A DNA stretch of 28,588 nt from a virus. Positions 706 to 22,208 of this stretch are shown in pieces (the stretch's first letter is position 1; each line of letters opens with the position of its first letter). The notes beneath the pieces were generated by a model. The model saw only the letters and a list, made by a program, of their open reading frames with translations, ran no database searches and was not told where the DNA came from. The DNA lies in IMG/VR virus record IMGVR_UViG_3300037484_001834, one strand, 5' to 3'. A program made the translations under genes and the position numbers.

Positions 706-2250
706 TCAGACTGATTCGTTTTCTAGGTGTGGAGACTCTGTGGGCATATTGAGACCAAGGTGATCGAGCTCCCAGTGCAGGATGCTCAAGTCCTCTTTCG
801 TAAGCGTAGTGGCGTCGAGAATTTCGTCGAGTAGCGTCTGAACGCCAATGAGTCTTCCGGGCGTGATTTCACCCGTGGGCGTGAAAGCCAAAGAATCGTG
901 AATCATTCCAATGGCCAAGGACCTTTCTCGGCCCATGATGGGCAGGTCACGCAGAAAAGCGAGGCTGAGCCGAACGACTTCTATCGGTATCGTTTCGCTT
1001 ATGAGCAATGCGCAAGCCTTCCACATGCTTCGCGGAATGGGTTTTAGAATGACCCCCGGAGCCCCAGGGGCCTCCGAGGCCGGCGCGTTGTCGTCAGCGG
1101 CCATCTGATCGGCGAACCCCTTCTCATCGAACGCGCGAAGCATTTCAGGCGTCGTTCGGCCATCGAGTATGATTCGTCTTCCGGGAACTCTTTCGCTCTC
1201 TAGCGGCTCCGCCGGAGCGTCTGGGAGTTGCTCCCCGCAGAGGTGCCCCCCGCAGGGGTGCTCCCCGCAGAGGTGCTCCCCGCAGGGGTCGTCTACGCTT
1301 TCTTCCGGATCGGCCGGCTGAAAATTTTGACCCGTTCGCATTTTTAGAATCAAGTCACGACGAAATTTTAGACCAGTGGCCCGGGCCCTACGCATAGCTT
1401 CCCGCCTATGCTCGCTGAAGATTTTTGGGCCGATTCCAGGCAAAGGCTCGTAGGCGATGTATGCATAGCCATGCGATAAGGCCGCTTCCCTGAGCTCGGG
1501 GAGATCCGACGCACTACACATGTTCTTTGCATAGCGGTCGGCGAGGATTTCGATACCGTCGGCGCGTCCGAGAGCTTGGCTTGCTGATACGATATCGTTT
1601 GCCACGTTTTGTGACGAGCGGCCTTGTCCAAGAGAGGTATAATACGCGGCCTTTTGGCGGCACCTGAATTGAAGAAGAGTCGAGCTGTCTATGCCCGGGC
1701 ATTTTCCGCAATAAGCTTCTTCAAGGCAGTGTTCGGAAGCTGCCGCGTAAACGCAATCCCTGGGAACAACGAACGAGAGACCGAACCCCTGAATCGTTCC
1801 GACAAAAACGCGCCATATGCTATCGAAGAAAAACTCTCCTATTTCGGGAAATTTTTTGCCAAATGATGTAAGTCCAGCCGCCGCGACGCTGATAGGCGGA
1901 TCGTGAATGTTCAGCACTCCGAGATTGGCCAGTATGGAAATCGTTTGCCCGATCAGTGAAGCCGACATGAAATTTTGCGCCGGTTCGTTGTCTGGCTCTT
2001 TTGGGGAAATCCACATATCCCATCTTTTTGGCATTTCGAAAGAGCAGTCCACGCCATAGACCTGGTCTGCCTGTATACTGTTTCGGTTCGTCATGTTCTG
2101 AGAGTTTTGAGCAGTTGGGCGAGCTCCGTTTACCAGAGCAAATTTCTTGGTTTCTTGGCAACGATCGAGGAGATCGGCAATAGCCATCATTGATGGAGAA
2201 TGCGGTCCAAGGACCCAAACGCGGTTCATGAGGAAACAAGCGCGGTTCAT
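706..2250 (-). CDS. Family-A paralogue, long form: N-terminal RVWVLGPHSPSMMAIADLL module plus a C-terminal domain shared with 20411..21487 (NF-SASLIGQ, DHCLxxAYxGxCPG); contains an in-frame 4x15-nt repeat encoding CGEHL/CGGHL
   Basis: ORF of 514 aa. AAAGGAAAG SD lies upstream of the ATG at 2250. By-eye alignment to three other ORFs in the window (19998..20414, 20411..21487, 21523..21903). Alternative start at 2229 (MNRVW). Confidence 0.6.
   Translation of the reverse strand: MNRACFLMNRVWVLGPHSPSMMAIADLLDRCQETKKFALVNGARPTAQNSQNMTNRNSIQADQVYGVDCSFEMPKRWDMWISPKEPDNEPAQNFMSASLIGQTISILANLGVLNIHDPPISVAAAGLTSFGKKFPEIGEFFFDSIWRVFVGTIQGFGLSFVVPRDCVYAAASEHCLEEAYCGKCPGIDSSTLLQFRCRQKAAYYTSLGQGRSSQNVANDIVSASQALGRADGIEILADRYAKNMCSASDLPELREAALSHGYAYIAYEPLPGIGPKIFSEHRREAMRRARATGLKFRRDLILKMRTGQNFQPADPEESVDDPCGEHLCGEHPCGGHLCGEQLPDAPAEPLESERVPGRRIILDGRTTPEMLRAFDEKGFADQMAADDNAPASEAPGAPGVILKPIPRSMWKACALLISETIPIEVVRLSLAFLRDLPIMGRERSLAIGMIHDSLAFTPTGEITPGRLIGVQTLLDEILDATTLTKEDLSILHWELDHLGLNMPTESPHLENESV
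1230..1289. repeat. 4x 15-nt tandem repeat (gctccccgcagaggt / gccccccgcaggggt), in frame within 706..2250
   Basis: Read directly. Confidence 0.9.
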
Positions 2251-2315
2251 GATTCTTTCCTTTTATTCTCTGGCGGATCGTTCTGTATAAAATGCCGGAG
2301 CCCAATCGTTTACGA

Positions 2316-3017
2316 TTATTTGATTCCGATTTCCTTGCACTTTGCCAGAAGTATTCGGGCCTCAATGGGGTTTACTGACCCTTCTGTTGTAATCACGACT
2401 CTTCCGTCGTCCCGTATGGTTATAGCGAGACTGGTAGGTGTTCTTACGTATCCGATTTTCTGAATGACCTCTGGGTCCGAAGTATGGCATTCGTAAAGGA
2501 CGGCGCCTTGTGGATGTGCAGTGAGATGTTCGTTGGCAAGCACTTTTTCAAATAGTGCCACAGCGTCCAGATCCTTCGGTCGTCCGGCCGCCCGTTTGAT
2601 ATCAATAACGTCTTTGAGGCTTGCTACGAAAACTTTTTCCGATCCGATCTCGAAATCCGCTCCACGCGACTTGAGGTCTTCGAACGAAAAACTGCCGCTC
2701 ACCTTATCGACGAAGTCGACTTGAACAAGCGGCTTTTTACCAAAAATTCTCCAGGGGTGGTTGTCTTTCGCGTAAGGACCTTCCTTCATGTACGAAAGCT
2801 CGTGAAGATCGCCGTCCAGTATTAATGCGACTTTTACGAACTTCGTGAAATCGAATTCGTTTACGACGAAATCGAGGTCTTTTGGGGTTACGGGCGCGCC
2901 ACGGAGAAAGGCCGCCGCGTTTCCGAACAGGATTCCTTCAATGCCACTTTCTCTGATGACTCGTGCAACCGTTTCGAGCACGAGAATCGGATTTTTGGGT
3001 TTTTCCGTGGATTCCAT
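2316..3017 (-). CDS. minimal nucleotidyltransferase-fold protein (pol-beta superfamily; GN-x10-DLDF motif) with a C-terminal helical domain
   Basis: ILFGNAAAFLRGAPVTPKDLDFVV matches the G[SN]...D.D signature of MNT/KNTase-type nucleotidyltransferases. 233 aa. Confidence 0.55.
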   Translation of the reverse strand: MESTEKPKNPILVLETVARVIRESGIEGILFGNAAAFLRGAPVTPKDLDFVVNEFDFTKFVKVALILDGDLHELSYMKEGPYAKDNHPWRIFGKKPLVQVDFVDKVSGSFSFEDLKSRGADFEIGSEKVFVASLKDVIDIKRAAGRPKDLDAVALFEKVLANEHLTAHPQGAVLYECHTSDPEVIQKIGYVRTPTSLAITIRDDGRVVITTEGSVNPIEARILLAKCKEIGIK

Positions 3018-3077
3018 TTTCTGTTTCTTTCGCTTAAGGTCTTGGGGGCGTCCGTGGGTTTTGGCTTCTGTCTTTTC

Positions 3078-3401
3078 TTATTGTCGTTTGATAAATTCAG
3101 CGAGAGCGCGATAGGGGCCGTCATTCTGAACGAGAATCGATTCGATTGTATAATCAAGGTTTTTATTTACGATCCACCAGTGGGGATCGGTTATTTCGAT
3201 CAGTTCGGTTATGATTCGGTCTATGTCTACTTGATTGATGGCACATTTGCCGCCAAATACATGTGGAGTAAAGTATCTTATACAAGAGAATCCCGAAAGT
3301 CTGTTAAGAACTTTTACCTTTAGGTTTATAGCTTCCGCGCGGAAGTTACCGGACAGGTCTACTATATTGACATTCTCTTTTGTAAAAACTGTAGCGCTCA
3401 T
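3078..3401 (-). CDS. hypothetical protein (AT-rich codon usage)
   Basis: ORF of 107 aa. Its ATG overlaps the downstream stop by 4 nt (ATGA at 3398-3401). Confidence 0.45.
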   Translation of the reverse strand: MSATVFTKENVNIVDLSGNFRAEAINLKVKVLNRLSGFSCIRYFTPHVFGGKCAINQVDIDRIITELIEITDPHWWIVNKNLDYTIESILVQNDGPYRALAEFIKRQ

Positions 3402-3835
3402 GTGTTTTCTCCTTTTGATTTGCTGTTTTTTTCTTCAGGTCCAATTACCGTTGATATTGAAACACGTTTATGAATGCAGTGGTCGCAAAGATAGTGGCCG
3501 TCGCCGTTGCACCCTTCCGGTCCTGCGGGTGTGCCCCCTTCGTAAGCTTCGCATTTATCGTCGGGCGCGCGAAGGTTTTTAGTGCCAACCCCGGCCCACT
3601 TTCCATTAGCTTCTTGATATACAATAACGTCGTATCCGTCCCAAAAGGCTGCCTGGCATACAATCAGCGCCTCACGCGGATCCTTGCCTATCCACCAAAC
3701 GTAATTTACGCCGCTTGAAATGGCGCCACGGGGAAGCATGACGGAGAAATGATCACTGCGGCCATTGTCGCACTCGATGAGGTAATGGCCTTTTTGGGGC
3801 TCTGGTTTTTTGGTGAGCCATTCAATGTGTTTCAT
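3398..3835 (-). CDS. Family-C paralogue (MKHIEWLTKKPEPQKGHYLIE...) with a Cys-rich C-terminal extension (CNGDGHYLCDHCIHK)
   Basis: 145 aa. Its N-terminal 75 aa align with the product of 3835..4065. ATGA overlap with the upstream gene at 3835. Confidence 0.5.
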   Translation of the reverse strand: MKHIEWLTKKPEPQKGHYLIECDNGRSDHFSVMLPRGAISSGVNYVWWIGKDPREALIVCQAAFWDGYDVIVYQEANGKWAGVGTKNLRAPDDKCEAYEGGTPAGPEGCNGDGHYLCDHCIHKRVSISTVIGPEEKNSKSKGENT

Positions 3836-4065
3836 CAGATTTTCCCGCAGTCAAGCGCAGTCCATTTACCTTCCACTTCGTGATAGATAGCAATGCTGTC
3901 ACCCTTTAACGTGGCAGCCTGACATGCTCTTAGAGCCTCATGTGGATCCGTACCCATCCACCATGTTACTGGCCATGCAAAGAGTGAGGGACAACTGTCG
4001 CTCTTGATAAGATAATGACCTTCTTGTGGGTCAGGTTTCTTGCTAAGCCATTCAATGCGCTTCAT
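3835..4065 (-). CDS. Family-C paralogue, short form (MKRIEWLSKKPDPQEGHYLIK...)
   Basis: Internal ATG at 4065 of the longer ORF 3835..4332. It forms an ATGA overlap with the methyltransferase stop. Paralogue of 3398..3835. Confidence 0.5.
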   Translation of the reverse strand: MKRIEWLSKKPDPQEGHYLIKSDSCPSLFAWPVTWWMGTDPHEALRACQAATLKGDSIAIYHEVEGKWTALDCGKI

Positions 4066-7760: not shown

Positions 7761-8135
7761 CTATTGGGGTTCTCGTTCGCGCCGCAGGCCTTCGATGAAT
7801 GCTCGCAGCTCCGCCGGCACCGCCTGGTCGTTCAAATTGTATCCCGAGGCGCGGTGAAGAATGATCGATCCGAGCGCCGCTTTTGCTCCGGAATCCGTTT
7901 GTTTTGCGTACTCGAACTGCATGTTTTCGAGCTCCTGGATCATGCCCTGATTGAACGCGCGGCTTTGCTCGAAGACCTGCCGGCGAACGGCCTCCTGCCG
8001 CGGGGCAAAGACCTTGTAAAGGAAAAAATCATTACCCTGCACGATCCAGGTTATGGCCAAAAGGCCAAAGAGCCCCAAGAGCCCACCCGCCAGAACGGCG
8101 ATGATGTTTCCGGAAGTTTTTTGTGATTTCTCCAT
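7761..8135 (-). CDS. small membrane-anchored protein (single N-terminal TM helix)
   Basis: 124 aa. IIAVLAGGLLGLFGLLAITWIV. ATG at 8135 lies downstream of the promoter and palindrome at 8158-8186. Confidence 0.5.
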   Translation of the reverse strand: MEKSQKTSGNIIAVLAGGLLGLFGLLAITWIVQGNDFFLYKVFAPRQEAVRRQVFEQSRAFNQGMIQELENMQFEYAKQTDSGAKAALGSIILHRASGYNLNDQAVPAELRAFIEGLRREREPQ

Positions 8136-8157
8136 GTTTTCTCCTGTCGGTTCGCAT

Positions 8158-8228
8158 TATCTTATATAAGATACCCACCACGTCAAGATCTTTCGTCGTT
8201 TTGGCCTTACATTCTCAAAATCCGAGAC
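8158..8228 (-). promoter_or_regulatory. Promoter P1: palindrome TTATCTTATATAAGATA (8158-8174) over the -10, -35 TTGACG (rc of 8181-8186), upstream dyad TTCTC-N7-GAGAC (8212-8228)
   Basis: Read directly; same architecture as P2-P9. Confidence 0.55.
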
Positions 8229-9458
8229 TTATGGCTTTTTGACGGGCTGACAGGGAACGTCGTCTTTTCCAAAGACGTAGGATTCATAGCCAGCAGCCCT
8301 GATGCTTCCCATGCCTTGGTACTCCTCAAGCCATGAGTCAAGACCAACTGGGTCCGGCCGCCAGATGCGTGTCGTTTGATTCTTATCGAGCTCGCAAAGC
8401 ACGATGGAGGCCGCCGGGTCGCTCAGGGCATCGAGGAAGCGATTAGAATGCGTCGCAATGAGCATGGGGGCTTTTTTGGCCATTTCCTCAAGCATCCAAA
8501 CGACTCTGGATTGAAGAGCAGGATGCAGATTTACTTCCGGATCGTCAAAGGAGAGGATCGAGGGCGTGGTGCTCCCCGCAGGACCTGCGGTCAGCAGGGT
8601 GCTCCCCGCAGGGGTTTCATGAAGCGCGCTGAGCGCGACAAAGGCGAGGTAGCTTCGCTGCCCATCGGACATCATGCTTACCGGCAGGGATTTTCCGGAA
8701 AGCGACCCAAAAACCGCTTCGAGCTCGATATCGGAAGCTCCTGAAGGCTTTAGAACGAGGTCCTTGAGATCGGCCGAAAGTCCGAGTCGCGCCTTTTCCA
8801 AAACTTTTTGCCAGGTGTCTTTTCCCTGTTCGCGAAGTTTTTGGAATGCTCTTGGGAAGGTAAGGGTTTCTTCATGTGGGTGAGTTTTCTCCTTGATCGT
8901 GTAGGGCCAGCCACATTCGTGACCTGAATCGATCCGATCGAGCGCTTGGGCAAGGCGCTCCGTTTCCAGCGATACGCGTCGAATCTCCGGTAGGGCAAGC
9001 GCGTTGGGGGGAATAGATATTTTTTTGCCATTTAATGCATCGAATAGGGAAAGATCAACGACGTGATCGTTCCGCTTTTCCCGCAACATCACACGAACGG
9101 GCTTTTTGTCTTTGTGCACATCGATGCTTTCGTCAACAACGACTACCGAGCCGCCCAGGCAGGCCACGGCGAAGTCATAGTCTATTCTTGGCCCATCGCC
9201 TTCAATCGTGACCCCTAGACCGATCTGGTCTCTTCCTTGACGAAGAAGCGATTGGGCTCTTCCGTGAATTTTCATCGCGCCGTCTATGGATGGAGTTTTT
9301 CTGGCGGCGTGGCCGATGATATCGAGCGCATCGAGGATAGTGGTCTTGCCCGTACCATTACCTCCGATTAGTACCGTGAGCCCGCGAAGGTCCAGCTCGA
9401 TGTGATCGATTACGCGCAGGCCCGATATCCGAAGTTGAGTGATGCAGTCTTGACTCAT
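8229..9458 (-). CDS. ABC/OLD-type AAA ATPase (AAA_21/AAA_15-like) with no nuclease domain
   Basis: Walker A LIGGNGTGKTT, ABC-signature-like SDGQRSYLAF, Walker B/D-loop LSFDDPEVNLHP and H-loop IATHS. Start refined to the ATG at 9458, which forms an ATGA overlap with the upstream ORF stop at 9455. An in-frame PAGST repeat lies between the signature and Walker B. Confidence 0.85.
   Translation of the reverse strand: MSQDCITQLRISGLRVIDHIELDLRGLTVLIGGNGTGKTTILDALDIIGHAARKTPSIDGAMKIHGRAQSLLRQGRDQIGLGVTIEGDGPRIDYDFAVACLGGSVVVVDESIDVHKDKKPVRVMLREKRNDHVVDLSLFDALNGKKISIPPNALALPEIRRVSLETERLAQALDRIDSGHECGWPYTIKEKTHPHEETLTFPRAFQKLREQGKDTWQKVLEKARLGLSADLKDLVLKPSGASDIELEAVFGSLSGKSLPVSMMSDGQRSYLAFVALSALHETPAGSTLLTAGPAGSTTPSILSFDDPEVNLHPALQSRVVWMLEEMAKKAPMLIATHSNRFLDALSDPAASIVLCELDKNQTTRIWRPDPVGLDSWLEEYQGMGSIRAAGYESYVFGKDDVPCQPVKKP
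8568..8612. repeat. Two copies of ggtgctccccgcagg flanking an inverted CCGCAGG-A-CCTGCGG hairpin, in frame within the AAA ATPase gene
   Basis: Read directly. Confidence 0.85.
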
Positions 9459-9844
9459 GGTGATGTGCTCCAATTCCGCTCAGAAAGCCACGAGATAAGC
9501 TCCCCGTGGCGTTCTTCTGGTTTAAAAGTGCCTTCGATGGTCTTTCCATCAGTTACCTCGCCATGGAAGTCGCAAAATCCTTCAGGAGCGATATTGATGA
9601 GTATGGCGAAGTTTGATACGCGCCAGTGGATGTCGATGGACCCATCGGCCGCGGGCGTGATTTCTGGGGCGTCGATCGCGAGCCCGGTCTTCTGCATGAT
9701 TGTGCTCGCGATTCCTCTTAGGAAACTGGTGGCGCGCTCCCAGGTAACCGGTCTCATAGCAGGGCTTCCCTCGCCGTCCCAGTCTTCCTCGAGCTTCACG
9801 ATGAAGGACGACTGAGTGATGGCGCGTTCGATGGCTTCAATCAT
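9455..9844 (-). CDS. hypothetical 129-aa protein, translationally coupled to the AAA ATPase
   Basis: ORF with ATG at 9844. ATGA overlap with the ATPase gene. Confidence 0.5.
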   Translation of the reverse strand: MIEAIERAITQSSFIVKLEEDWDGEGSPAMRPVTWERATSFLRGIASTIMQKTGLAIDAPEITPAADGSIDIHWRVSNFAILINIAPEGFCDFHGEVTDGKTIEGTFKPEERHGELISWLSERNWSTSP

Positions 9845-9866: not shown

Positions 9867-11639
9867 TTAGGTTGGGTAGGCTGCGCACGAAGCCCGATAA
9901 TGCTCCGCTATGATCAAGCGGTAGTGTTCCTTCCGGAGATGACCGGACCAAGTGTCGATGTTTTGATCGGCTTGTCCATTGTTGAAGATCATTTCGCCGC
10001 TCGCATCCAGCCCTTTCATTTTCAGGATGCGTATGGGAATGCCTCTCCAGTCCAGGAGAATGCTTCCCGCCGGCAAGTTTTCGTAGAATTCCTCGAGCGA
10101 AGCGCCTTCGGATTCCTTTGGCGGCTCGTTAACGCGATTACAATCGACATCCATCCTGAGCGCGACTACGTTGTTTTTGTTCCAGGGGCATCTCATGATC
10201 AGAGCCGGCGCCCAGTTTGGGTCGTCGGAGCTCAAGCCAATTAAGCGAAGCTCTACGTTTCCGTCAGGCCATTTTTTCCGAGCTAGAATGAGCGCATCGA
10301 TTTCGCTTTCCGTCGGATCTTCACGTACTGTTGTGACTGATTTCAAAGGCATCCAGTCCGGCAGCTCGTGCGCAAGACGTTCGTCGTGGTACAACTCGCG
10401 GACCTGATCGAGAATCTTTGCCTCGAAAACCGCCTTCTGAAGCCGCGAGCTCCCATGCTCCTTTATCCACCCCAAAATGGGCTCATCGGCTCTCTTTTTT
10501 CGTTCGCTGATGAGAAACTCCATGGTTTTATCGACTTGATCTTCGCCGGATTCCTCCTCGATGAAGTCGTAACGCAAGGAAACTCGTTCATCGTCCATCT
10601 CGAACCACTCTGGAACATCGTGGTCCGGATCAATCACGCAAGGCTCGCCCTCCTTTATTTTCGGCAGGTAGTAATCGAGATTGGTCATGAGCTCATCAAT
10701 CTCCTCACGCCGTTTTCTTTCTTCTTTCGAAGTTTTCGAGCGGCCTTCTGCCAGAACGGCTTCCTTGGTCTTCATGGCCTCTGCCAGGACTTCATCGTAC
10801 CGAGCCATTTCGTCGACGATGAGCTTGGTTGCCTCCTCGGCCGTGAGCACGTGATCGAATTCCGGAGGCGCGTTTCCCTCGCGCAAGACGCTTTCGTTAC
10901 CTGGCGTCATTTTGCTAAAGAGTCTTCCAGCGCTACCGGCCGGTGACGCCTGTCCATTTTTATCGAGGTGCAAATACCCCGTGCGCAAGGCCTCCCGCGC
11001 GCTTACGGTGACGTTTACGTGCTGTTCCCGGGTCGTAGGGGTACCGGCGAGGAAAAGCTCCCTGTGCGCCTCCTCTGTAAGGCTATAAATGCCCGTGAGG
11101 GTGATCATGACCGTATTCGCGTTCGCTCGCTTGTCGTAGGCGGCGCGAGAGACGCCCAAGACTTTGTCATATCGCGCCATCTCTTTTTCGATCATCTCTG
11201 TGGCTTCCGCCTTCGACAGAATATGATCAAATTCCGGCAGGACAGAACCCCATTCCACACCGAGCTGAGCGAGATTCGGCTTGAGCTTGCAGAGAATAAA
11301 ATCGGTTCTGTCATAAATCTCCGCGTCCAGATCCGGCGACCATATTTTTCGAGCATAGCCCGTTCTGATGGCTTCATCCTTATCGAGCGTTACGGCGATA
11401 TATTGTCTTTTCCAAGGGGAGTCGGAGAATCCGTAAGGGGAGACCGTCGTCTTTTTAAGGGTCTCATTGGTGAGATTGTAACAAGCGGTGAGCAGAATGG
11501 TGGGAGTGCTCTCCGCAGGAGTGCTCTCCGCAGGAGTGCTCTCCGCAGGAGTGCTCTCCGCAGGAGTGCTCTCCGCAGGAGTGCTCTCCGCAGGAGTGCT
11601 CTCCGCAGGAGTGCTCTCCGCAGGAGTGTTTCTTTTCAT
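9867..11639 (-). CDS. multidomain hypothetical protein: N-terminal 8x PAEST tandem repeat, two RTGY/PEFDH-type modules, and a C-terminal Family-B domain (WPDGNVELRL...ALIMRCPW)
   Basis: 590 aa. ATG at 11639 with AAAGGACA SD. The internal repeats and the paralogy to 7130..7738, 11682..12140 and 15763..16179 are seen directly in the translations. Confidence 0.65.
   Translation of the reverse strand: MKRNTPAESTPAESTPAESTPAESTPAESTPAESTPAESTPAESTPTILLTACYNLTNETLKKTTVSPYGFSDSPWKRQYIAVTLDKDEAIRTGYARKIWSPDLDAEIYDRTDFILCKLKPNLAQLGVEWGSVLPEFDHILSKAEATEMIEKEMARYDKVLGVSRAAYDKRANANTVMITLTGIYSLTEEAHRELFLAGTPTTREQHVNVTVSAREALRTGYLHLDKNGQASPAGSAGRLFSKMTPGNESVLREGNAPPEFDHVLTAEEATKLIVDEMARYDEVLAEAMKTKEAVLAEGRSKTSKEERKRREEIDELMTNLDYYLPKIKEGEPCVIDPDHDVPEWFEMDDERVSLRYDFIEEESGEDQVDKTMEFLISERKKRADEPILGWIKEHGSSRLQKAVFEAKILDQVRELYHDERLAHELPDWMPLKSVTTVREDPTESEIDALILARKKWPDGNVELRLIGLSSDDPNWAPALIMRCPWNKNNVVALRMDVDCNRVNEPPKESEGASLEEFYENLPAGSILLDWRGIPIRILKMKGLDASGEMIFNNGQADQNIDTWSGHLRKEHYRLIIAEHYRASCAAYPT
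11506..11625. repeat. 8x perfect 15-nt tandem repeat gtgctctccgcagga (encodes PAEST x8 on the minus strand)
   Basis: Read directly. Confidence 0.95.
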
Positions 11640-12650: not shown

Positions 12651-14504
12651 TTAGCCAGACGCGCTCGTAGCCGAGTGCTCCGACGAGTAGTCATTCACGA
12701 AGCTCTTTCTGTCGGCGAACGATCTTACCAGATCGACAAAGCCGTCTTCCGACGAGCTGTGCTCGGGCTCCTGGTTGTTTACCGTCGCGAGCGCGTAGCT
12801 CGTTCCCGCGGAATCGAAGAAGCGACAGGAAATAGCTATGCCATTCGAGTCGAAGATCTTGAGCGAGTCGAGCACACCGAGTGGAAGAAACGCGCGCGCT
12901 CGTTTGGTCATTTCACCTACGAGTCCCGTGAAGGCTGCCAAACCCTCTTCGGCGGCCGAATCGCCCGCGTTGGCGATCACGAAGCCGTTTCCGTCGGCCA
13001 ATACCGCGCTTCTAGCGCTCTTTTCACGCATGAGGGAATCGAGACTGCATTCCATATCGTTTTGAAGGATGGGCGTACCGTCCGGCAATTGCGATTCGCG
13101 CGGGATCCTCGGAGACGGCGTTTGCCGGCCACCCGCGAACAGGCGCGCTTGCAGGCTCATCTCGCGATTGCGCAAGTCCTCGACCTCAGAGGCCACGATT
13201 GAAAGCTCATGAACCTTAGAACGCAAATCGATGAGCTCGGCTTCCTTGGCATCGAGCGTATCCATGCGCCTTTGAAGCAGATCCGCTTCGATCCGGAGCT
13301 GCTTGTGCTCGGCACGTAGCCGTTCGAGCTCAGGTGTGCTATCCCGATGCTCCTCGAGCTCGGAGTTCGTGATCCTCAGCTCTCGGTTTTCCTCTACGAC
13401 CCTATCGATTTCGGCAAGCTTGGCCTGAGCGGCTTGGATTTTTACGCGCAGCTCCTTTGCCTCACCGCATGTTATCTCTAGATCGATTTTGATAGCATCG
13501 AGCTCCTTCGCCTGCTCACGCAAGGCGACAACCTCGTCGTTGGTTCGATCATGCAAAGACAGCTTGGCCGCGGCCGTTTGCAACTCGATGCGCAAGGAGC
13601 TTGTTTCTTCCGTTACGCCGGTCAAGATCCGGTCCTTTTCCGCCAGCTCGGTACAAGCGCGTATAAGGGCCTCTTCTTTTTCTCCAACGGTCGATAGCGC
13701 TTGGTCTAGGGCTTCCTCTTTCTCTGTCAGTTCGGCCCGTACGAGCGAAATGGTTTCGCTATAGTGAGCGGCATCGGTCTCGGCGCGTTCCAAGATTTTG
13801 GTCTTCTCTGTCTCAGAGTCGAAAAACCGCGCGAGCGTTTCGCTCGTTTCCACCTCCTTGGATTTCGCAAGATCGGTCAGCTCGCCAAGTAACCTTGCGA
13901 TTTTTTGGGTTTTTTCTTCTGACTCGATGCGAAGACACGCAATCGTCTCTTCTTTTTCCGCCATTTCGCATGTTTTGGGGTTATCGGCCGCCTTTTTGCA
14001 CAGATTGGCGTTTTCCTTTTGGAGCCGGAGGCGCTCGGACCTTTCCCGTTCGAGCTCCCGTTCGGCGACGAGCAGCTTTTGGGACGTTTTGCCCAGTATC
14101 ATGCGCGCTTCTACGCAAGAGTTTCCGATCTCCTCTTGAAGCGATTTGTTTTCTTCAAGCTCGGTGGTTAGCTGAGAAATCTTTGTGCGTAAGCCTGTGG
14201 CCAATAGGTCGGCAGCCTTTTGGTCCTTGGCCCGTTCGGCCTCAGATGCTTGGCGCAAAGCACATCGCGCTTCGATCTCCGAGTCGAGCTTCTGTTTCAG
14301 CTCGCTCATATCGACCCAGAGATTCACTCGGTCTAATTCGATATGGCTGCATTTCGTTTCGGATTCATCGAGCTGAGATCTCGCCGCTGCGAGCTCTTGG
14401 CGATGAAGCTCATTCTTGCGTCCGCAGCTAAGAAGAAATCCTACCGCGAAAGAAATCCCACCAAGTACCGCAACGAGAACGTAAAACGCGTGTAGTGTCG
14501 TCAT
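12651..14504 (-). CDS. membrane-anchored protein with a long coiled coil and a C-terminal Roadblock/LC7-like domain
   Basis: 617 aa. N-terminal TM helix FYVLVAVLGGISFAVGFLL. About 450 aa of heptad-rich E/K/L/R sequence. The C-terminal SAVLADGNGFVIANAG...GTSYALATV resembles the Roadblock fold of the protein encoded at 15256..15639. Confidence 0.7.
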   Translation of the reverse strand: MTTLHAFYVLVAVLGGISFAVGFLLSCGRKNELHRQELAAARSQLDESETKCSHIELDRVNLWVDMSELKQKLDSEIEARCALRQASEAERAKDQKAADLLATGLRTKISQLTTELEENKSLQEEIGNSCVEARMILGKTSQKLLVAERELERERSERLRLQKENANLCKKAADNPKTCEMAEKEETIACLRIESEEKTQKIARLLGELTDLAKSKEVETSETLARFFDSETEKTKILERAETDAAHYSETISLVRAELTEKEEALDQALSTVGEKEEALIRACTELAEKDRILTGVTEETSSLRIELQTAAAKLSLHDRTNDEVVALREQAKELDAIKIDLEITCGEAKELRVKIQAAQAKLAEIDRVVEENRELRITNSELEEHRDSTPELERLRAEHKQLRIEADLLQRRMDTLDAKEAELIDLRSKVHELSIVASEVEDLRNREMSLQARLFAGGRQTPSPRIPRESQLPDGTPILQNDMECSLDSLMREKSARSAVLADGNGFVIANAGDSAAEEGLAAFTGLVGEMTKRARAFLPLGVLDSLKIFDSNGIAISCRFFDSAGTSYALATVNNQEPEHSSSEDGFVDLVRSFADRKSFVNDYSSEHSATSASG

Positions 14505-14517
14505 GCGCGAATTCCCT

Positions 14518-15252
14518 TCATTGCTCTAGAAGCTGAAGCTGAAGCTCGATCACTGCTTTTTTCCAGATAAATTCTACGCGTCGATTCTTCGCATGAGACT
14601 CACTCGAGTCATCAAGCAGCCGACGCCATCCCACTCCTTCGATTTCGATTCTTTTAGGAGATGCACCATGGGCTATCAGCCAATTTCGAACGGATTCGGC
14701 TCTTTGGAATGACAGATGCATGTTGCGTTCGAGCCTGCCCTGTTTATCCGAGTGGCCTCTTATGAGAAGCGTTAAGTCCGTCCTGGCCTTCAGATGCCCG
14801 AGGACCTTCCAGGCGGTTCGAAAATCGTCTTTTTCCAAAGTGGCCGCGTTCGTGGGAAAGAAGATCATCCATGTCCTGGTCGGTCCACTTCCGCGTGTTT
14901 CGCCGGACCGTGTCCGCTCGTCGACCAAGGACAAATCCGGCAAGACGATTGTCGGCAAGATCTGAATCTTGCTCGGAGGCGCGACGTTCTGATCTTCTTT
15001 CGAATTCTTAAAAACAATTTCGTCGACTTTGATTTCGATCTCATGCTCCTGATCTTCGAATCCTCCCTTGATTCCTTGGGATTCGTTTTCATTGACGACG
15101 GATGATTCGCGGATCGCAACTGAATGATCCGCGAATCCGTCAATGATCCGGGGCACGATCAAAAACCTCAAAAGGCCTAGGTCGCCTGCGCCCAAAAGAA
15201 CGAGAGCGACGAGGAGAATCCTGTGGTGTTTGTTTTGATCGATGCTTACCAT
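14518..15252 (-). CDS. OmpA/MotB-family peptidoglycan-binding protein with an N-terminal TM helix
   Basis: The C-terminal LLIRGHSDKQG...NMHLSFQRAESVRNWLIAHGASPKRIEIEGVGW...NRRVEFI is an OmpA-like (PF00691) signature. N-terminal ILLVALVLLGAG helix. Confidence 0.8.
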   Translation of the reverse strand: MVSIDQNKHHRILLVALVLLGAGDLGLLRFLIVPRIIDGFADHSVAIRESSVVNENESQGIKGGFEDQEHEIEIKVDEIVFKNSKEDQNVAPPSKIQILPTIVLPDLSLVDERTRSGETRGSGPTRTWMIFFPTNAATLEKDDFRTAWKVLGHLKARTDLTLLIRGHSDKQGRLERNMHLSFQRAESVRNWLIAHGASPKRIEIEGVGWRRLLDDSSESHAKNRRVEFIWKKAVIELQLQLLEQ

Positions 15253-15255
15253 GGC

Positions 15256-15639
15256 TTAAGCCGCGAGCTGAATGGCCTTGGCCAGTTCCGCGCACCGTCT
15301 CTTGACTTCGATGAACACGAGCCCGAGCTTGGCGTCTTTGTTCGTCAAGACGACGAGGACCGAGTCGGTTCCGACGGCGTTGAGCACCACGTATCCCTTT
15401 TCGCTGCGGACATAGACCTGCTCCATGACCGAGGCCATGAGTTCAGTCGAGATTCGTTCGCCGACGCCGAGCATGGCCGCGGCCATACCCGAGACGAGCT
15501 CTTCGTCGATCTCGGAAGGCAATACCGACGCAACGATGAATCCATCGATACTAACGACCGCCGCGCCGATGATATCGGGTGAGGCCGAGCGTAAGCCGCG
15601 AAGAACGTCTTGCATTTTCTCTGTCCGTGATGCTGCCAT
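15256..15639 (-). CDS. Roadblock/LC7 domain protein (MglB-like)
   Basis: 127 aa. IIGAAVVSIDGFIVASV...GYVVLNAVGTDSVLVVL pattern typical of PF03259. Strong SD AAAGGAGAA upstream of the ATG at 15639. Downstream of promoter P4. Confidence 0.8.
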   Translation of the reverse strand: MAASRTEKMQDVLRGLRSASPDIIGAAVVSIDGFIVASVLPSEIDEELVSGMAAAMLGVGERISTELMASVMEQVYVRSEKGYVVLNAVGTDSVLVVLTNKDAKLGLVFIEVKRRCAELAKAIQLAA

Positions 15640-15699: not shown

Positions 15700-15750
15700 T
15701 GCGTGAGATAGAAAGGGAGTCAAGAGGAACTTTTCTCAAAAACCGAGAAT
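15700..15750 (-). promoter_or_regulatory. Promoter P4: TTGACT-N16/17-(C)AAAATA with a half-operator, plus upstream dyad TTCTC-N7-GAGAA (15734-15750)
   Basis: Read directly. Drives the Roadblock/OmpA/coiled-coil operon. Confidence 0.5.
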
Positions 15751-18392: not shown

Positions 18393-18415
18393 GCTCGTTT
18401 TTTCCTCTCATTTTC

Positions 18416-18444
18416 TATTTTACGTAAGATAATTCTCGGGTCAA
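18416..18444 (-). promoter_or_regulatory. Promoter P6: TTGACC-N16-TAAAAT with operator TATTTTACGTAAGATAAT; drives the 97-aa gene plus the DUF3560-methyltransferase
   Basis: Read directly. -10 rc at 18417-18422, -35 rc at 18439-18444. Confidence 0.6.
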
Positions 18445-18454
18445 GGGAAATCTT

Positions 18455-18483
18455 TTGAGGCTTTTATCAGAAGCGATTAAGAT
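18455..18483 (+). promoter_or_regulatory. Possible divergent plus-strand promoter TTGAGG-N17-TAAGAT overlapping the P6 region
   Basis: Read directly. Would give a near-leaderless transcript for 18494..18718. Confidence 0.3.
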
Positions 18484-18493
18484 GCGGGTGACT

Positions 18494-18718
18494 ATGGCAC
18501 GGCCGCTTTACACGGTTCTCTATGTCTACGGATCGAATGACTACTCCTCCATGCGAGAAGCGGTCAAACGCGCGCGAGCCATGGCGAAGGCGCACGGAAG
18601 CGCATCAATTTATGCCGGAGAGAAGAAGACCCGGAGATTCGAACGGCTGAAGGAAGATCGCGGACCCGGCTCGCGCTTCCGAACGGTTGGGCGAGTAATA
18701 GAAGTCGAAGTTACTTAA
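18494..18718 (+). CDS. possible small basic protein, divergently transcribed from the P6 operator region; candidate autoregulator, uncertain
   Basis: The only plus-strand ORF not overlapping minus-strand genes. Plus-strand TTGAGG-N17-TAAGAT lies at 18455-18483. The ATG at 18494 is near-leaderless. Convergent with 18715..19101. Confidence 0.3.
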   Translation: MARPLYTVLYVYGSNDYSSMREAVKRARAMAKAHGSASIYAGEKKTRRFERLKEDRGPGSRFRTVGRVIEVEVT

Positions 18719-19101
18719 GGCTCGCGCGCCAGGCCTTGGCCGCTTCGCGCTTCCAGGTTTTTGAGAATAACTTCCGCCCAATTCAGAGTGAGCGAACAAA
18801 TCGTGTGGTTCATGCGCACCATTTGGGCAAGCGGGCATGCTCCTCGTGTTTTGTACCAATGGAGTACTAGAAAATTCGGCATCGACTCGTCAAAGGCACA
18901 ATCTTCTGAAAGCTCCGGTATGGGAATTACTCCCAAGGTGTGGTCTTGACAGTAGCTTTCCTGGGTGAAGAGTCGTAGCGCATTCATCGTCGCGCAGTTC
19001 CAGTTATCTGCCGAAAAGTCCCCATTGGGAGCAAAGGCGCATCGTGGAAGATCGCCCAACCAGGTTTTTCCGCGAGCTTGGCAACGTGGGCACTCGAACA
19101 T
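18715..19101 (-). CDS. hypothetical Cys-rich protein (N-terminal CPRCQ...C), possibly a Lar-like zinc ribbon
   Basis: ORF of 128 aa. ATG at 19101 lies 18 nt after the upstream stop. Confidence 0.45.
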   Translation of the reverse strand: MFECPRCQARGKTWLGDLPRCAFAPNGDFSADNWNCATMNALRLFTQESYCQDHTLGVIPIPELSEDCAFDESMPNFLVLHWYKTRGACPLAQMVRMNHTICSLTLNWAEVILKNLEARSGQGLAREP

Positions 19102-19119
19102 GATGGTTCTACTCCGTTT

Positions 19120-19932
19120 TTATTGACTCAAGGCAAGGCGGAAGCCTTGGGTATCCGACCGCGAGTCAGGAGAATTTCTTTCTCTCATCGCGCAGCGGCA
19201 GTGTTTGGCCGAATTTAACCAGGAACCGCCCCGGGAGACCCTATCGATTCCTGATTCTGGGCCTGTGGGATCAACTTGATCGTCGGCATAGTCACCGTAA
19301 AAGTCCTCGCACCATTCCCAAACGTTCCCATGCATGTCATATAGGCCCCATTCGTTTGGCTTTTTCCATCCTACCGGATGCGTTTGGCCAAGGTACGTCA
19401 TGTCGCCTATCGAGTCTCCGAACCAGCTCAATTCTTGTAGTGCCGGATTCGTTTGATTAGGTCTTCTGCATTCTGATCCGTCGTTGAATGCGCTTATCGT
19501 TCCGGCCCGGCATGCATATTCCCATTCCGCCTCGGTTGGAAGTCGCGCGTTGATTCCTGGATATTGCAATCTGAGTCTTTTACAGAATTCCTGGCAATCC
19601 TCCCAACTTACCTGTTCCACCGGCCGGTTCGCTCCCTCAAAGCAGCTCGGTTGTGTTCTCATTACCGCTTCCCACTCCGCTTGCGCACAGGGTTTATCAG
19701 CCAGCCAGAAACCACAGGTTATTGTTACCTGATGCCGCGGTCCTTCGTTTTGGCAACGTCCAACTTCATCTTCCGGTGATCCCATCAGAAATATTCCCGG
19801 CGGAATCCAACGCAAACGCATCAGCATGCCTTTTCGCAAATGAATGCCGATAAAAGGATAGGGAGACAGCTTGTCCTTTCCCCATATACTTGCGCGCGGA
19901 TGGGGGTGTACTTCAGCCATTGTTGTTTGCAT
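19120..19932 (-). CDS. formylglycine-generating enzyme (FGE-sulfatase, PF03781) family protein
   Basis: LPTEAEWEYACRAG, HGNVWEWCEDFY, RVSRGGSW and GFRLA motifs. First gene after the regulatory region at 19940-19995. Confidence 0.85.
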   Translation of the reverse strand: MQTTMAEVHPHPRASIWGKDKLSPYPFIGIHLRKGMLMRLRWIPPGIFLMGSPEDEVGRCQNEGPRHQVTITCGFWLADKPCAQAEWEAVMRTQPSCFEGANRPVEQVSWEDCQEFCKRLRLQYPGINARLPTEAEWEYACRAGTISAFNDGSECRRPNQTNPALQELSWFGDSIGDMTYLGQTHPVGWKKPNEWGLYDMHGNVWEWCEDFYGDYADDQVDPTGPESGIDRVSRGGSWLNSAKHCRCAMRERNSPDSRSDTQGFRLALSQ

Positions 19933-19939
19933 GATTCTT

Positions 19940-19995
19940 TCTTAGCGTGCGAGACTTTAGATATGATCTGTCGATCTTTCTTAAAATCCGAGAAT
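19940..19995 (-). promoter_or_regulatory. Regulatory region P7 upstream of the FGE gene: dyad TTCTT-N7-GAGAA (19977-19993); -35/-10 not clearly assignable
   Basis: Shares the AAAATCCGAGAAT motif with P8. Hexamers are weak. Confidence 0.35.
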
Positions 19996-19997
19996 AC

Positions 19998-20414
19998 CTA
20001 TGAAGCCCAATCCACGAGTCTATCCATTAGTCCAAGGCGATCGATCTCCGCGCGGACTTGGCCAACGATCTCCGGTCCACTCCACGTTACGGACACGGGG
20101 CATGCGGCCTCAAATAGCCTTTCCGCGCAGTCGATGAAGTACGCGCGGGCCGGAACGACGCCATATGTGTTCGCGCAGGCCTCTGTCGAATGGGCTTCTT
20201 CTACGGATCGGGCGCGCGTCCACTCTTTAACGTCTGGTAGAAACACTTTTGTGTATATGTTCGGCTGCCATGTCAAGTCGAGCAGTCGTTCGATCTCGTT
20301 CATCTGCCAGGAGAAAGCCCCCAGGATCCAAACGCGTCCTTCGCGCTCTATGCTGCGCGCGAGCCGATCGGTCGCTGCTACTTCACAGGGAAGGGTCCAG
20401 ATTCGATTCTTCAT
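19998..20414 (-). CDS. Family-A paralogue, short form (MKNRIWTLP...RVWILGAFSWQMNEIERLL)
   Basis: Start refined to the ATG at 20414, ATGA-overlapping the stop of 20411..21487. Confidence 0.55.
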   Translation of the reverse strand: MKNRIWTLPCEVAATDRLARSIEREGRVWILGAFSWQMNEIERLLDLTWQPNIYTKVFLPDVKEWTRARSVEEAHSTEACANTYGVVPARAYFIDCAERLFEAACPVSVTWSGPEIVGQVRAEIDRLGLMDRLVDWAS

Positions 20415-21487
20415 GGCAAAAACGCCTCCACGATTTCTCGTGAGAGATCGACGTGAATGTCCAGTAATCGTTGATCTCGTACCCACCCGACAAAACCCTC
20501 GATCTCTTTTGGATCTCCCGACCAGACGATCTTTTTTCGTCCAGATGGGTCTTGGAGGGGTCCGGTGAGATAACTGATGTTCAGGTACGTGCCGGTATCG
20601 GCCAATTCAGGAAGCTCTCTTCCCCGAACGTCGGCGAAGCTGTAATTTCCAAGAACGATTTTTGGGGCTTCGTTAAGGCCTTTGAAGGCTTTTTCAAAGT
20701 CTTGTGAGACTTCCTTCTCGGAGCATTTTCTGATCGCCGCGCGCAGCTTTGTTCGGTACCCGAGGACTTCCAGGGAATAGACTCCCGGGCAGTCGCCGGC
20801 ATATGCTGCTCTAAGGCAATGGTCACACGCTGCGATAAGGAGTATGTTGTGGGGAATTCCAACGGGAGCTACGAGATTCGGATCGGTCATCTTCTCGCCC
20901 ACCTTCCACATGCCCCTAAAGCCTTCCAAAACCCATTCTCCGGGGTTTCCGATGCAGTGGTGCTCGCGCGGCCACGGCAACGCCGTAAAGTGGGCTAATC
21001 GCTCAAGACTTTCCGCAGGTACGATACTCGCCAGCCACCCGGATAGCGGTGGATATTCGGGCCTTGTCTGATGGCCGATGTTTGCGAGTCGCCCAAGCCT
21101 CGCCAGCTCGCAGATGACTTGACCGATGCTACTGGCGGGTAAGAAGTTTTTCGGCGCCTTGCCATATCCATGACTGCCCGGCTGGTGATGATCGATGATT
21201 TTTGAATTGCGCTCAATCCAGGCCGGTGGAGCGCGCAAAGCCGCACCCGCGAGATTGATCAGGACCGCGCGGCACTCGACAAAGTAGAATGTTTGTTCGG
21301 CACACACGGAAAGGCGAGCGTAGACGTCCGATTTCTTATAGGCATTTCCATCGTGAACACGCCTCCATGTCCCATCCGGATCTAGAGTTTGCGCGTAAGC
21401 GATTGTCTCCCCCGCAGAGTCGAGGAGCTTTTCGATAGCATCCATCTCCGGGTCCGGGGCGCCTAGAATCCAAATTCGATCGGCCAT
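20411..21487 (-). CDS. Family-A paralogue, long form (MADRIWILGAPDPEMDAIEKLL...) with a C-terminal domain shared with 706..2250
   Basis: 358 aa with ATG at 21487. The TTCTC-N7-GAGAA dyad lies 16-32 nt upstream of the ATG. Confidence 0.6.
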   Translation of the reverse strand: MADRIWILGAPDPEMDAIEKLLDSAGETIAYAQTLDPDGTWRRVHDGNAYKKSDVYARLSVCAEQTFYFVECRAVLINLAGAALRAPPAWIERNSKIIDHHQPGSHGYGKAPKNFLPASSIGQVICELARLGRLANIGHQTRPEYPPLSGWLASIVPAESLERLAHFTALPWPREHHCIGNPGEWVLEGFRGMWKVGEKMTDPNLVAPVGIPHNILLIAACDHCLRAAYAGDCPGVYSLEVLGYRTKLRAAIRKCSEKEVSQDFEKAFKGLNEAPKIVLGNYSFADVRGRELPELADTGTYLNISYLTGPLQDPSGRKKIVWSGDPKEIEGFVGWVRDQRLLDIHVDLSREIVEAFLP

Positions 21488-21502
21488 GTTCTCGATTTCC
21501 TT

Positions 21503-21519
21503 TTCTCGAAAAGTGAGAA
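21503..21519 (-). promoter_or_regulatory. Internal TTCTC-N7-GAGAA dyad 16-32 nt upstream of the start codon of 20411..21487 (overlaps the RBS region)
   Basis: Read directly. No -35/-10 follows it. Confidence 0.4.
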
Positions 21520-21522
21520 TGC

Positions 21523-21903
21523 CTACCGGCGGTTAAGTCTCACGACCTCGTTCTCGACGGTTTCCACCATATTGTAATCGGGAAACCTTACGTAGCTAGA
21601 AGGCGTCTTCTGCCGAGGTTTTATTTTGGGACCACAATCGATGCAGTAGATGCGCATAGGAGCGGACTGGCCCACGTCTGCGAACGCCTCTCTGTCACAA
21701 CTGTTTTCCTTGTTTACTCGCGCGCAAAGACCGGTTCCCTGTAGAAAAATTTGCGCATAGACAAAAGGCTCACCTGCCCTGGCTAAAAGCTCTTGGATTT
21801 TTACCATTTTATCCGAATGAGGGCCTAAAACCCAGAGTCGCTTTGTCCGGTTTGATTTTTTGGAAGGTATGAGCCGCGACCGCGCTACTGAGGGTTTCGT
21901 CAT
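21523..21903 (-). CDS. Family-A paralogue, short form (KRLWVLGPHSDKMVKIQELLARAGEPFVYAQ)
   Basis: Start refined to the ATG at 21903, ATGA-overlapping the stop of the upstream ORF. Confidence 0.55.
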   Translation of the reverse strand: MTKPSVARSRLIPSKKSNRTKRLWVLGPHSDKMVKIQELLARAGEPFVYAQIFLQGTGLCARVNKENSCDREAFADVGQSAPMRIYCIDCGPKIKPRQKTPSSYVRFPDYNMVETVENEVVRLNRR

Positions 21904-22208
21904 GATAAAAGCTCCGGCAGCACTCGCGTGCTCTTCTTGTCCCATCGGCCGTTTGGATAGACAAAACGAGCCGCCTTTAGGGCATCCTCGGCGCTTCCAC
22001 CCTTTTCGAGAATCTGTCTTGCCACGCGAGTCGCATCGCGCGCCCGGCGGGGAAGGTCTTTGGCCCACCTCTGCGCCTCGAGAAATTCGTTCATCATGGC
22101 CGCGCGTTCATCGGCCGTGAGGGGAGCCACCTCGTTTTTAGCGGAAATCTCGTCGAGGTAGCTTGATAACTCGAGTAGATCGAAGTTCAAGTCGAACGTC
22201 TTTCGCAT
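21900..22208 (-). CDS. hypothetical protein, first gene of the Family-A operon; apparently leaderless
   Basis: ATG at 22208 lies about 7 nt downstream of the predicted -10 (CAAAAT) of promoter P8. No SD. Confidence 0.45.
   Translation of the reverse strand: MRKTFDLNFDLLELSSYLDEISAKNEVAPLTADERAAMMNEFLEAQRWAKDLPRRARDATRVARQILEKGGSAEDALKAARFVYPNGRWDKKSTRVLPELLS

Follow-up and report, generated by a model that had tools for sequence, protein, structure and literature searches.

What are the proteins encoded by four mutually similar genes on one viral stretch of DNA, and what might they do for the element that carries them? The question is raised by IMG/VR virus record IMGVR_UViG_3300037484_001834, a sequence of 28,588 nucleotides (in what follows the window, at its full length), in which an earlier note, made from the letters alone, had recognized four copies of a module whose fold it left as unknown. 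We refer to these genes and their homologues as family A. The fold can be named as that of the DHH/DHHA1 phosphoesterases, homologous to the CRISPR-associated protein NrN, and family A is best read from its motifs and profiles as a divergent sister clade of NrN within that superfamily rather than as a member of NrN. We put the probability of the overall interpretation, an NrN-related clade of which the window carries an eroded set, at roughly 0.6. The four open reading frames (ORFs) lie where the earlier note had placed them, every one on the minus strand, and are named here as follows.

706..2250, minus strand: A1, 514 amino acids as an ORF, with the probable true start at M8 (position 2229).
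19998..20414, minus strand: A2, 138 amino acids, a short paralogue.
20411..21487, minus strand: A3, 358 amino acids, a full-length family member.
21523..21903, minus strand: A4, 126 amino acids, a short paralogue.

It is close to certain that all four products share one fold as true paralogues. BLASTP aligns A1 with A3 over ~315 amino acids at E = 2e-16 and returns 3e-11 for A2–A4, 1e-8 for A3–A4, 3e-8 for A2–A3 and 1.5e-7 for A1–A4, the weakest pair being A1–A2 (2e-3). When Smith-Waterman scores were set against those of shuffled sequences, the comparison on which the earlier note had staked its claim, all six pairs of N-terminal modules stood well clear (z = 5.5–17.4), with none of 500 shuffles matching the observed value; the ~200 further residues that the long forms, A1 and A3, have in common after this module gave z = 18.8, again with no shuffle in 500 as high. 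A hidden Markov model (HMM) of the family, constructed from A3 and 59 database homologues with A1, A2 and A4 left out, matches A1 at 1.4e-45, A2 at 4.2e-7 and A4 at 1.5e-9, and A4 and A2 also align to the family profile in hhalign (96.9%, E = 1.9e-10, 75 columns, and 95.6%, E = 1.2e-8, 98 columns, respectively). Chance or compositional similarity among the four ORFs was rejected as a negligible possibility, given z scores of 5.5–18.8, shuffles that never reached the observed scores and detection by both HMM and hhalign.

Several details of the earlier description change with these alignments. The shared N-terminal module exists in all four copies but spans ~75–90 amino acids (HMM positions 8–88) rather than ~100, and the motif drawn for it is approximate: the residue before M, given as E or Q, can be E, Q, S or K, and YA[QT] fits A3 and A4 only. 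What had been called a C-terminal domain of the long forms is a region that they do share, but its hallmarks, SASLIGQ and DHCL..CPG, belong to the second half of the DHH domain, where they are the helix following motif III and motif IV, respectively; the true C-terminal DHHA1-like domain is also common to A1 and A3. The four copies are 25–34% identical to one another, i.e. old or very fast-diverged, and over the N-module they are not each other's nearest relatives. The N-modules of A1, A2 and A4 are at ~30–37% identity to everything, and nearest-neighbor analysis gave no proof of local amplification. The ratio of nonsynonymous to synonymous substitution rates (dN/dS) among the paralogues, which the earlier note had suggested computing, was obtained but carries no meaning, synonymous sites being saturated (dS of 2.6 or undefined even at 47% identity).

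The DHH/NrN-like fold and the homology to NrN we hold with high confidence. Structure prediction, another of the checks proposed at the outset, gave an AlphaFold2 (AF2) model of A3 from the family alignment (predicted local distance difference test score, pLDDT, 87.6; predicted template modeling score, pTM, 0.85) with the two-domain DHH plus DHHA1 fold, the DHH domain bearing an insertion of ~80 amino acids (residues 132–213). Foldseek matches this model to NrN with a probability of 1.0, and there are structural matches also to NrnA, PggH, GdpP and PAP phosphatase. Comparison of HMM with HMM, likewise suggested, was made with hhalign and delivered both the relatedness of the module and the fold. 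Among PDB sequences, the best matches of the family profile are NrN (E = 0.014) and GdpP, which ranks first or second with the various family profiles (E = 0.07–0.2). Against a profile of eight NrN homologues from metagenomes (38–99% identical to the PDB protein, full ORFs aligned), the family A profile aligns at 96.7% (E = 3.4e-10, 232 columns) and insertion-less members at 97.6% (E = 4.7e-12, 228 columns); the motifs are colinear, with AAADH paired to AAND (D119 of NrN) and GDPxRGFAGG to GGGxNGFxG. The two groups are bridged, in addition, by PADLOC models: an NrN fragment matches DHH_CorA (1.9e-18) and C3a116 (1.3e-14), and C3a116 is matched by family member P0197 (8e-9), by the protein of Ectopseudomonas khazarica (locus L064; 1.6e-6) and by three of 60 others (best 2e-4). 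Only a minority of family members is detected by such NrN-type models, and A3 and A1 are not among them. Elsewhere the searches were silent: the four paralogues have no match in Pfam, NCBIfam, PHROGs or PADLOC, single-sequence searches of PDB sequences with them returned nothing, and neither they nor any canonical member match Pfam DHH (PF01368) or DHHA1 (PF02272) at E ≤ 1. The silence of Pfam is uninformative, because bona fide NrN itself gets no DHH or DHHA1 match.

The family alignment contains, colinearly, the motifs GAPDPEM, VEC, IDHHRPGDPGYG, FLPASSIGQV, AADHCL..Y.G.CPG and, at the C terminus, YGDPxRGFAGGY. Seven metal-site residues are predicted in the family and in A3, namely D12-P-E14, E71, D99-H100-H101 and D222, and their variant forms (DxE, E) are common to NrN; where classical DHH proteins have DxD and GGGH, family A has DxE and GFAGGY. 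Its C-terminal Y-G-D-P-x-R-G-F-A-G-G-Y, which lacks a His, is aligned by hhalign to G-G-G-x-N-G-F-x-G of NrN and would be the equivalent of the GGGH motif of DHHA1. NrN has the same derived motifs throughout, from LG..D.EM..I..LL (a D-x-E and not a D-x-D motif I), V-E (the Glu of motif II) and IDHH to the S-x-[IL]-[GE]-Q-V helix, AA-x-D (motif IV) and the C-terminal G-x-x-x-G-F-x-G, and at 259 amino acids it is of the same size as the members of family A from which the insertion is absent (~262–272 amino acids). Family A differs in its Cys triad (E-C, D-H-C, C-P-G), which is invariant, in a PGDPGYG loop and in an insertion of ~80 amino acids that is variable, and in being found on phages and mobile elements, whereas NrN is found at CRISPR loci. 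PggH, the catalytic domain of GdpP, NrnA/Pde2 and the Sulfolobus membrane-associated cyclic tetra-adenylate (cA4) nuclease have the same DHH plus DHHA1 architecture and metal-motif series but are much farther from family A than NrN is.

Exhaustive profile searching retrieved 1,650 family A representatives (clusters at 50% identity) at E ≤ 1e-3 and 1,105 at E ≤ 1e-30, and A3 by itself has 108 word-indexed homologues, all annotated as hypothetical and none with a Pfam domain. The metal site is intact (seven of seven residues) in 232 of the 236 representatives that have residues at all seven positions (98%); three of the four exceptions are P0002, P0003 and P0004, the closest relatives of A3. Family A is a stand-alone accessory gene, mostly on phages and mobile elements. 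It occurs at 39 loci in IMG/VR; one carrier is a prophage with portal, terminase and integrase, others are contigs of 58–242 kb with runs of small unannotated ORFs, which we read as phage-like, and 26 genome loci are spread patchily over Myxococcales, Planctomycetes, Acidobacteria, Patescibacteria, Rhodanobacteraceae, a Pseudomonas-group isolate and others. No partner gene recurs beyond the sister elements of the window (described below), either in tblastn searches of 73 loci with every window protein or in clusters of neighboring ORFs from 77 loci. More than one HMM match was found in 7 of 77 loci, three of them with split genes and three of the window's own lineage; multi-copy carriage is rare family-wide. 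In one locus (L040), the gene is split after HMM position 250 by ~1.5 kb (7947–8735 and 10218–10595) with its parts in the correct order, which could reflect an intron, an inserted element or an old disruption, and L033 and L047 contain frameshift-split copies. ORFs with pentapeptide repeats (A(D/N)LSG) lie within 6 kb of family A in the otherwise unrelated loci L005, L007, L010, L024, L025 and L051, an association that may be a real link to DNA-mimic-type proteins or a low-complexity artifact of BLAST clustering.

Within the window, A3 is the sole copy of the four to retain the seven predicted metal-site residues (D12, E14, E71, D99, H100, H101 and D222), and its Cys triad is kept (C72, C224 and C233). 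Its C-terminal motif is lost, HVDLSREIVEAF standing in place of the near-invariant YGDPxRGFAGGY of the family. In L001, a sister element, the DHH of the A3 orthologue is replaced by EHH, and the orthologue dN/dS is 0.21. The Joint Genome Institute (JGI) gene call for A3, at 344 amino acids, is 14 residues shorter than the ORF; family alignments support M1.

A1 reads as a conserved pseudoenzyme. The active site is degenerate (D12S, E14S, E71D, ISPKEPDNEP in place of the DHH region, and D222E) and the Cys triad is kept, and its orthologues P0111–P0113, 72–73% identical to it, carry the same substitutions at a dN/dS of 0.38–0.40, which argues that the dead form is maintained. Pseudoenzymes beside active enzymes are a general phenomenon, to which A1 conforms in that it is under purifying selection and keeps its fold and Cys triad without D12, E14, DHH or D222; it would serve as a binder, scaffold or regulator rather than as a hydrolase. 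We consider it very probable that A1, A2 and A4 are all non-catalytic. In the AF2 model of A1, the core fold is retained (residues 10–270 and 359–376 are confident, 310–352 disordered), with an insertion (~residues 275–355) that comprises a long helix and a disordered loop of Cys-Gly-Glu-His repeats and, as a tail, a helical C-terminal extension of ~130 amino acids modeled at low confidence. Residues ~335–355 (window ~1190–1250) form a pentapeptide repeat, PCGEH LCGEH PCGGH LCGEQ (Cys-Gly-Glu-His/Arg), whose copy number varies among orthologues and which could be metal-binding or a slippage-prone linker. The start of A1 is most likely M8 (MNRVWVLG, window 2229), as in the orthologues, whose alignments support it; the JGI call of 494 amino acids is 20 residues shorter than the ORF. 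Were the JGI shortening of A1 and A3 at the 5' end, translation would begin at internal Met residues and the first strand and motif I would be cut off.

The short forms are reduced further. A4 consists of the N-terminal sub-domain only (family HMM 8–88), with motif I lost (GPHSDKM) and IDC kept, and A2 consists of the same sub-domain (motif I lost, GAFSWQM; IDC kept) followed by the post-DHH helix EIVGQVRAEIDRLG, the DHH loop having been deleted. At the metal positions they have S12, Q or K at 14, and D71, the remainder being absent. Because S12 (TCN codons) and D71 are shared by A1, A2 and A4 and are rare states in the family (Ser12 ≤ ~0.4%, Asp71 0%), the three probably descend from one dead ancestor, these two residues being the sole evidence for common descent. 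The likely origin of A2 and A4 as such is partial 5' tandem duplication, a view that draws on three likenesses. On an unrelated viral contig (L041), an ORF of 184 amino acids directly upstream of a canonical gene of 405 is an evident partial 5' duplicate, in which D12 has become Ala and DHH has become RSH; in L001, a decayed N-module remnant, SSNKMFHVENLLTEANEPFV (compare HSDKMVKIQELLARAGEPFVYAQ of A4), follows the second family A gene; and the DNA of the A2 start, AATCGAATCTGGA, resembles that of the A3 start, GATCGAATTTGGA, a hint that paralogues have recombined at their 5' ends. Residues 1–26 of A2 (window 20339–20414) include an extra, degenerate first-strand motif (MKNRIWTLP) before the real GRVWILG.

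That A2 and A4 are functional miniproteins and that they are long-lived relics we judge to be about equally likely, and we know of no characterized analogue of truncated N-module forms in the DHH superfamily. A broader version of the relic view, in which partial duplications have left A2, A4 and possibly A1 as non-functional remains that are still open as ORFs, is compatible with the interpretation given at the outset and is a serious contender, if somewhat short of an even chance. It agrees with the finding that A4 has no homologue but itself among 5.8e9 proteins, with the decay of the short form in L041 and of the remnant in L001, with the split or frameshifted copies in L033, L040 and L047, and with the A3 model, where the first 90 amino acids do not stand as a separate domain of the DHH fold. 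None of the fetched loci contains a counterpart of A2, the large database not having been searched with it. What speaks for function is that the ORFs of A2 and A4 are intact, are translationally coupled or follow a site resembling a ribosome-binding site (RBS) and are coding in frame, the codon statistics of A2 being 0.091 in frame versus -0.32 and -0.16 out of frame and those of A4 being best in its own frame. Both also keep the core residues W6, G9, M15, I18, L21/22 and Y..[DE]C despite ~30% identity to any relative, and A1 is clearly maintained (dN/dS 0.4).

What the canonical members do can be approached through their relatives. NrN, the CorA-associated phosphodiesterase of type III CRISPR systems, degrades the second messenger SAM-AMP (S-adenosylmethionine-AMP) to SAM and AMP, and its DHH triple mutant is inactive (PMC10600005). 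By homology, it is likely that canonical members of family A are metal-dependent phosphodiesterases with a small nucleotide as substrate. They would be stand-alone two-domain enzymes with a two-metal site in the DHH–DHHA1 cleft, constructed from D-x-E (motif I), E (motif II), DHH (motif III) and D (motif IV), and the C-terminal G-F-A-G-G-Y motif would hold a small nucleotide while this site cleaves a phosphodiester within it. Because phages, prophages and other mobile elements carry the family as a lone accessory gene, the likeliest role would be to destroy a nucleotide-based immune signal or a short oligonucleotide for the element. The set in the window would then be an eroded one, in which A3 has a metal site but no substrate-side motif, A1 is dead, and A2 and A4 are fragments of A1's dead sub-lineage that would still be translated as coupled small proteins.

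The narrower proposal of counter-defence through destruction of an immune messenger is a tentative one, with the odds leaning against it. Phage DHH phosphodiesterases have been predicted to counter nucleotide signals (PMC7824862), a DHH-DHHA1 cA4 nuclease being cited in that article, and a phage SAM-AMP lyase, shown in vitro, has been proposed as AcrIIIB4 (PMC12255297). The ring nuclease AcrIII-1, Acb1, Apyc1, the candidate AcrIIIB4 and the DHH proteins of jumbo phages are, like family A, single-gene enzymes of mobile elements, and family A is for its part homologous to a host signal-degrading enzyme; the folds of AcrIII-1, Acb1, Apyc1 and AcrIIIB4 are unrelated to it, and the jumbo-phage proteins give a weak match to the A3 model in BFVD (E 5e-3). 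The earlier note had seen in the repeated module a fast-evolving anti-defense or immunity cassette. Of this, multiple copies in a mobile-element lineage are borne out, but the orthologue dN/dS of 0.2–0.4 denotes purifying selection, no partner is conserved and multi-copy loci are the exception in the family.

A number of observations weigh against the interpretation as a whole. The identity between family A and NrN is remote (17–21%), and A3 alone gives a probability of 28% against the NrN profile, the family profile being needed for more. The family has what NrN lacks, i.e. an invariant Cys triad, the FLPASSIGQ helix and the variable insertion of ~80 amino acids, and its substrate may differ much from that of NrN. 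Since A3 is without the conserved C-terminal motif, it may be that none of the window's copies is active as an enzyme. A4 is an orphan, A2 is without a counterpart in the fetched loci and the region they consist of does not form a domain of its own. No CorA, Cas10 or other signaling gene lies by family A in the window or in the annotated loci, most of the 65 loci being without Pfam annotation, and the element in the window has no recognized phage or conjugation hallmark. Finally, in the only cultured-isolate carrier found, E. khazarica TBZ2 (L064, NZ_SBHZ01000021.1, 3830–8765), the surroundings look more like host defense than counter-defense: a minimal family A gene of 257 amino acids is co-directional with, and follows, the genes for a PDC-M26A-like protein of 792 amino acids (3.8e-46) and a DUF2357/PDDEXK_7 nuclease.

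This last locus is the natural starting point for the view that family A is a component of host type, a signal-clearing or processing subunit of a defense system borne by the element, as NrN is required for CorA-mediated immunity (PMC10600005). The window itself encodes an ATPase resembling PtuA, AriA and GajA together with a RelB antitoxin, and sister loci contain GmrSD_N. But no partner gene, sensor, cyclase or effector is conserved beside the family, most of the long contigs read as phage genomes, with the gene amid small early or accessory ORFs, and no PADLOC model covers the family as such; we regard the view as quite unlikely. Quite unlikely, too, is nucleotide salvage, in which family A would be a phage or mobile-element housekeeping enzyme of the nanoRNase or pAp-phosphatase type (like NrnA and NrnB), recycling short oligonucleotides as host nucleic acid is degraded and having no role in conflict. 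The structural matches to NrnA, PggH, GdpP and PAP phosphatase fit it, as do the phage neighbors, among them MazG and an HD/CCA-type nucleotidyltransferase, but dead copies retained under purifying selection are unexpected for a salvage enzyme.

The arrangement of the three neighboring copies departs from the description in the earlier note, which had them contiguous, ATGA-coupled and driven by a promoter, P8. Coupling was found between an upstream ORF and A4 (21900–21903) and between A3 and A2 (20411–20414), but A4 and A3 are 35 nucleotides apart, and the gap contains the RBS-like site AAAGGAAA. A simple sigma-70 scan found no minus-strand promoter upstream of the unit; probably it was the intergenic element at 22215..22275 that had been taken for P8. 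The features that bound the unit are these.

21900..22208, minus strand: the upstream ORF, ~102 amino acids from the ATG at 22208 (111 from the GTG at 22235), first gene of the unit and translationally coupled to A4.
22215..22275, minus strand: repeated intergenic element, upstream of the unit, reading ATTCTCGGATTTTGA[GT]AA, with the inverted repeat TTCTC-N7-GA[GT]AA, then TCTTGA.C and TATCTT.
19935..19997, minus strand: second copy of the repeated intergenic element, directly downstream of A2 and upstream of the gene for a formylglycine-generating enzyme (FGE)-sulfatase protein, marking the 3' boundary of the unit.

The upstream ORF has no Pfam, NCBIfam or PHROG match, and its orthologue in L001 (76% identity) directly precedes the A3 orthologue there. 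The core of the intergenic element recurs at ~8217–8229, 15738–15750, 19983–19995 and 22261–22273, always intergenic and on the minus strand, as ATTCTCGG(A/T)TTTTGAGAA (inverted repeat TTCTC-N7-GAGAA) followed by TCTTGAC and TATCTTAT-like boxes; the whole can also be written ATTCTCGGATTTTGAGAA...TCTTGAC...TATCTT, or, for short, TTCTCGGATTTTGAGAA. The 13-mer core alone is not significant (four found versus 1.9 expected), but the flanks do align, and the element may be a promoter or operator that divides a co-directional gene run into units.

That run comprises ~37 genes, all on the minus strand. In order of transcription, those identified encode RelB, a tetratricopeptide repeat (TPR) protein, RtcB, a protein of 903 amino acids with major vault protein (MVP)-shoulder and Vault_3 domains and the cassette, followed by the FGE-sulfatase-domain protein, a DUF3560-methyltransferase, a Roadblock/LC7 protein, an OmpA-domain protein, a coiled-coil protein of 617 amino acids, the PtuA/AriA/GajA-like ATPase, DUF7448, an N6/N4 DNA methylase and A1. 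The ATPase (8229–9473, minus strand), of the AAA_21/AAA_15 ABC type, is matched by the PADLOC models HEC-01A, PDC-M07A, AriA, PtuA and GajA (best 8e-27), is conserved in L074 and may be a defense module on the same element. The Roadblock/LC7, OmpA-domain (with weak ZorB/MotB similarity) and 617-amino acid coiled-coil proteins form a conserved backbone trio (12651–15639, minus strand), after which a GmrSD_N gene is found in L001 and L074.

When 25 kb of the window were compared by megablast with the plasmids of PLSDB and the phages of INPHARED, nothing matched. Sister elements L001–L004 and L074–L076 share its backbone, at identities ranging from 97% (Roadblock, in L001) through 84% (RtcB) to 37% (the 617-amino acid protein), a spread that points to mosaic elements. 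In L001, the upstream ORF and the A3 orthologue sit before RtcB, there is a second, fully canonical family A gene, and a Mg_chelatase-domain protein of ~500 amino acids takes the place of the vault-like protein; L075 has an A1 orthologue and another full-length copy. With four copies in the window, two and a remnant in L001 and two in L075, the amplification within one element that the earlier note had perceived holds as a feature of this lineage. Multi-copy carriage is a property of the lineage, and the cassette moves within it.

The same neighborhood suggests a role in RNA repair, with family A proteins as end-processing phosphoesterases that would trim or heal RNA ends before ligation, alongside RtcB and a vault-like scaffold. 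RtcB (25667–26953, minus strand; 3.3e-126) and the 903-amino acid protein (22371–25082, minus strand; MVP shoulder 1.1e-19, Vault_3 1.2e-8) are encoded within 4 kb upstream of the cassette, the gene for the second coming after that for RtcB with two small conserved ORFs in between. An RtcB–MVP operon type is known, the arrangement being of a kind linked to RNA repair, the A3 orthologue of L001 is immediately upstream of RtcB, and DHH enzymes include nanoRNases and RecJ-type nucleases. Across 73 family A loci, however, RtcB co-occurs only in sister elements L001, L003 and L004 and an MVP-like gene never; there is no neighbor that recurs family-wide, the cassette is placed differently with respect to RtcB in L001 than in the window, which means that it moves independently, and catalytic residues are missing in three of the four copies. 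ARAGORN and Rfam scans of the window likewise found no tRNA-like or Rfam RNA, where a tRNA-like or Y-like RNA is expected in RtcB/MVP operons. RNA repair is, on these grounds, very unlikely to be what family A is for.

The fold and superfamily of family A were already known, and the family itself is uncurated and undescribed in the literature searched; what is new is its carriage by mobile elements and its graded erosion to pseudoenzyme and sub-domain paralogues. At the least, an annotation gap of ~1,650 clusters without a Pfam, NCBIfam, PHROG or family-wide PADLOC model, every member seen being labeled hypothetical, can now be addressed, and the link to NrN yields a testable prediction, that of a metal-dependent phosphodiesterase on a small nucleotide. 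If the role were only nucleotide salvage, this would be an ordinary gain in annotation. SAM-AMP signaling was discovered in 2023, and to our knowledge the SAM-AMP lyase is the only phage countermeasure to it that has been proposed so far; a phage-borne NrN homologue would be the obvious missing counterpart of the viral ring nucleases. The most far-reaching form of this idea, which we think unlikely, is that family A is a widespread and unrecognized class of phage and mobile-element counter-defense of NrN stock, in which canonical members would hydrolyze SAM-AMP-type or other messengers and the dead A1, perhaps with A2 and A4, would act as a messenger sponge or as a dominant-negative partner of a host NrN-like enzyme. 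The lineage also offers a series of active-site erosion, from the intact second gene of L001 (L001b), through A3 with its substrate motif lost and the A3 orthologues with EHH, to the dead but conserved A1 and the fragments A2 and A4, from which it could be learned how a conflict enzyme gives rise to pseudoenzymes and miniproteins.

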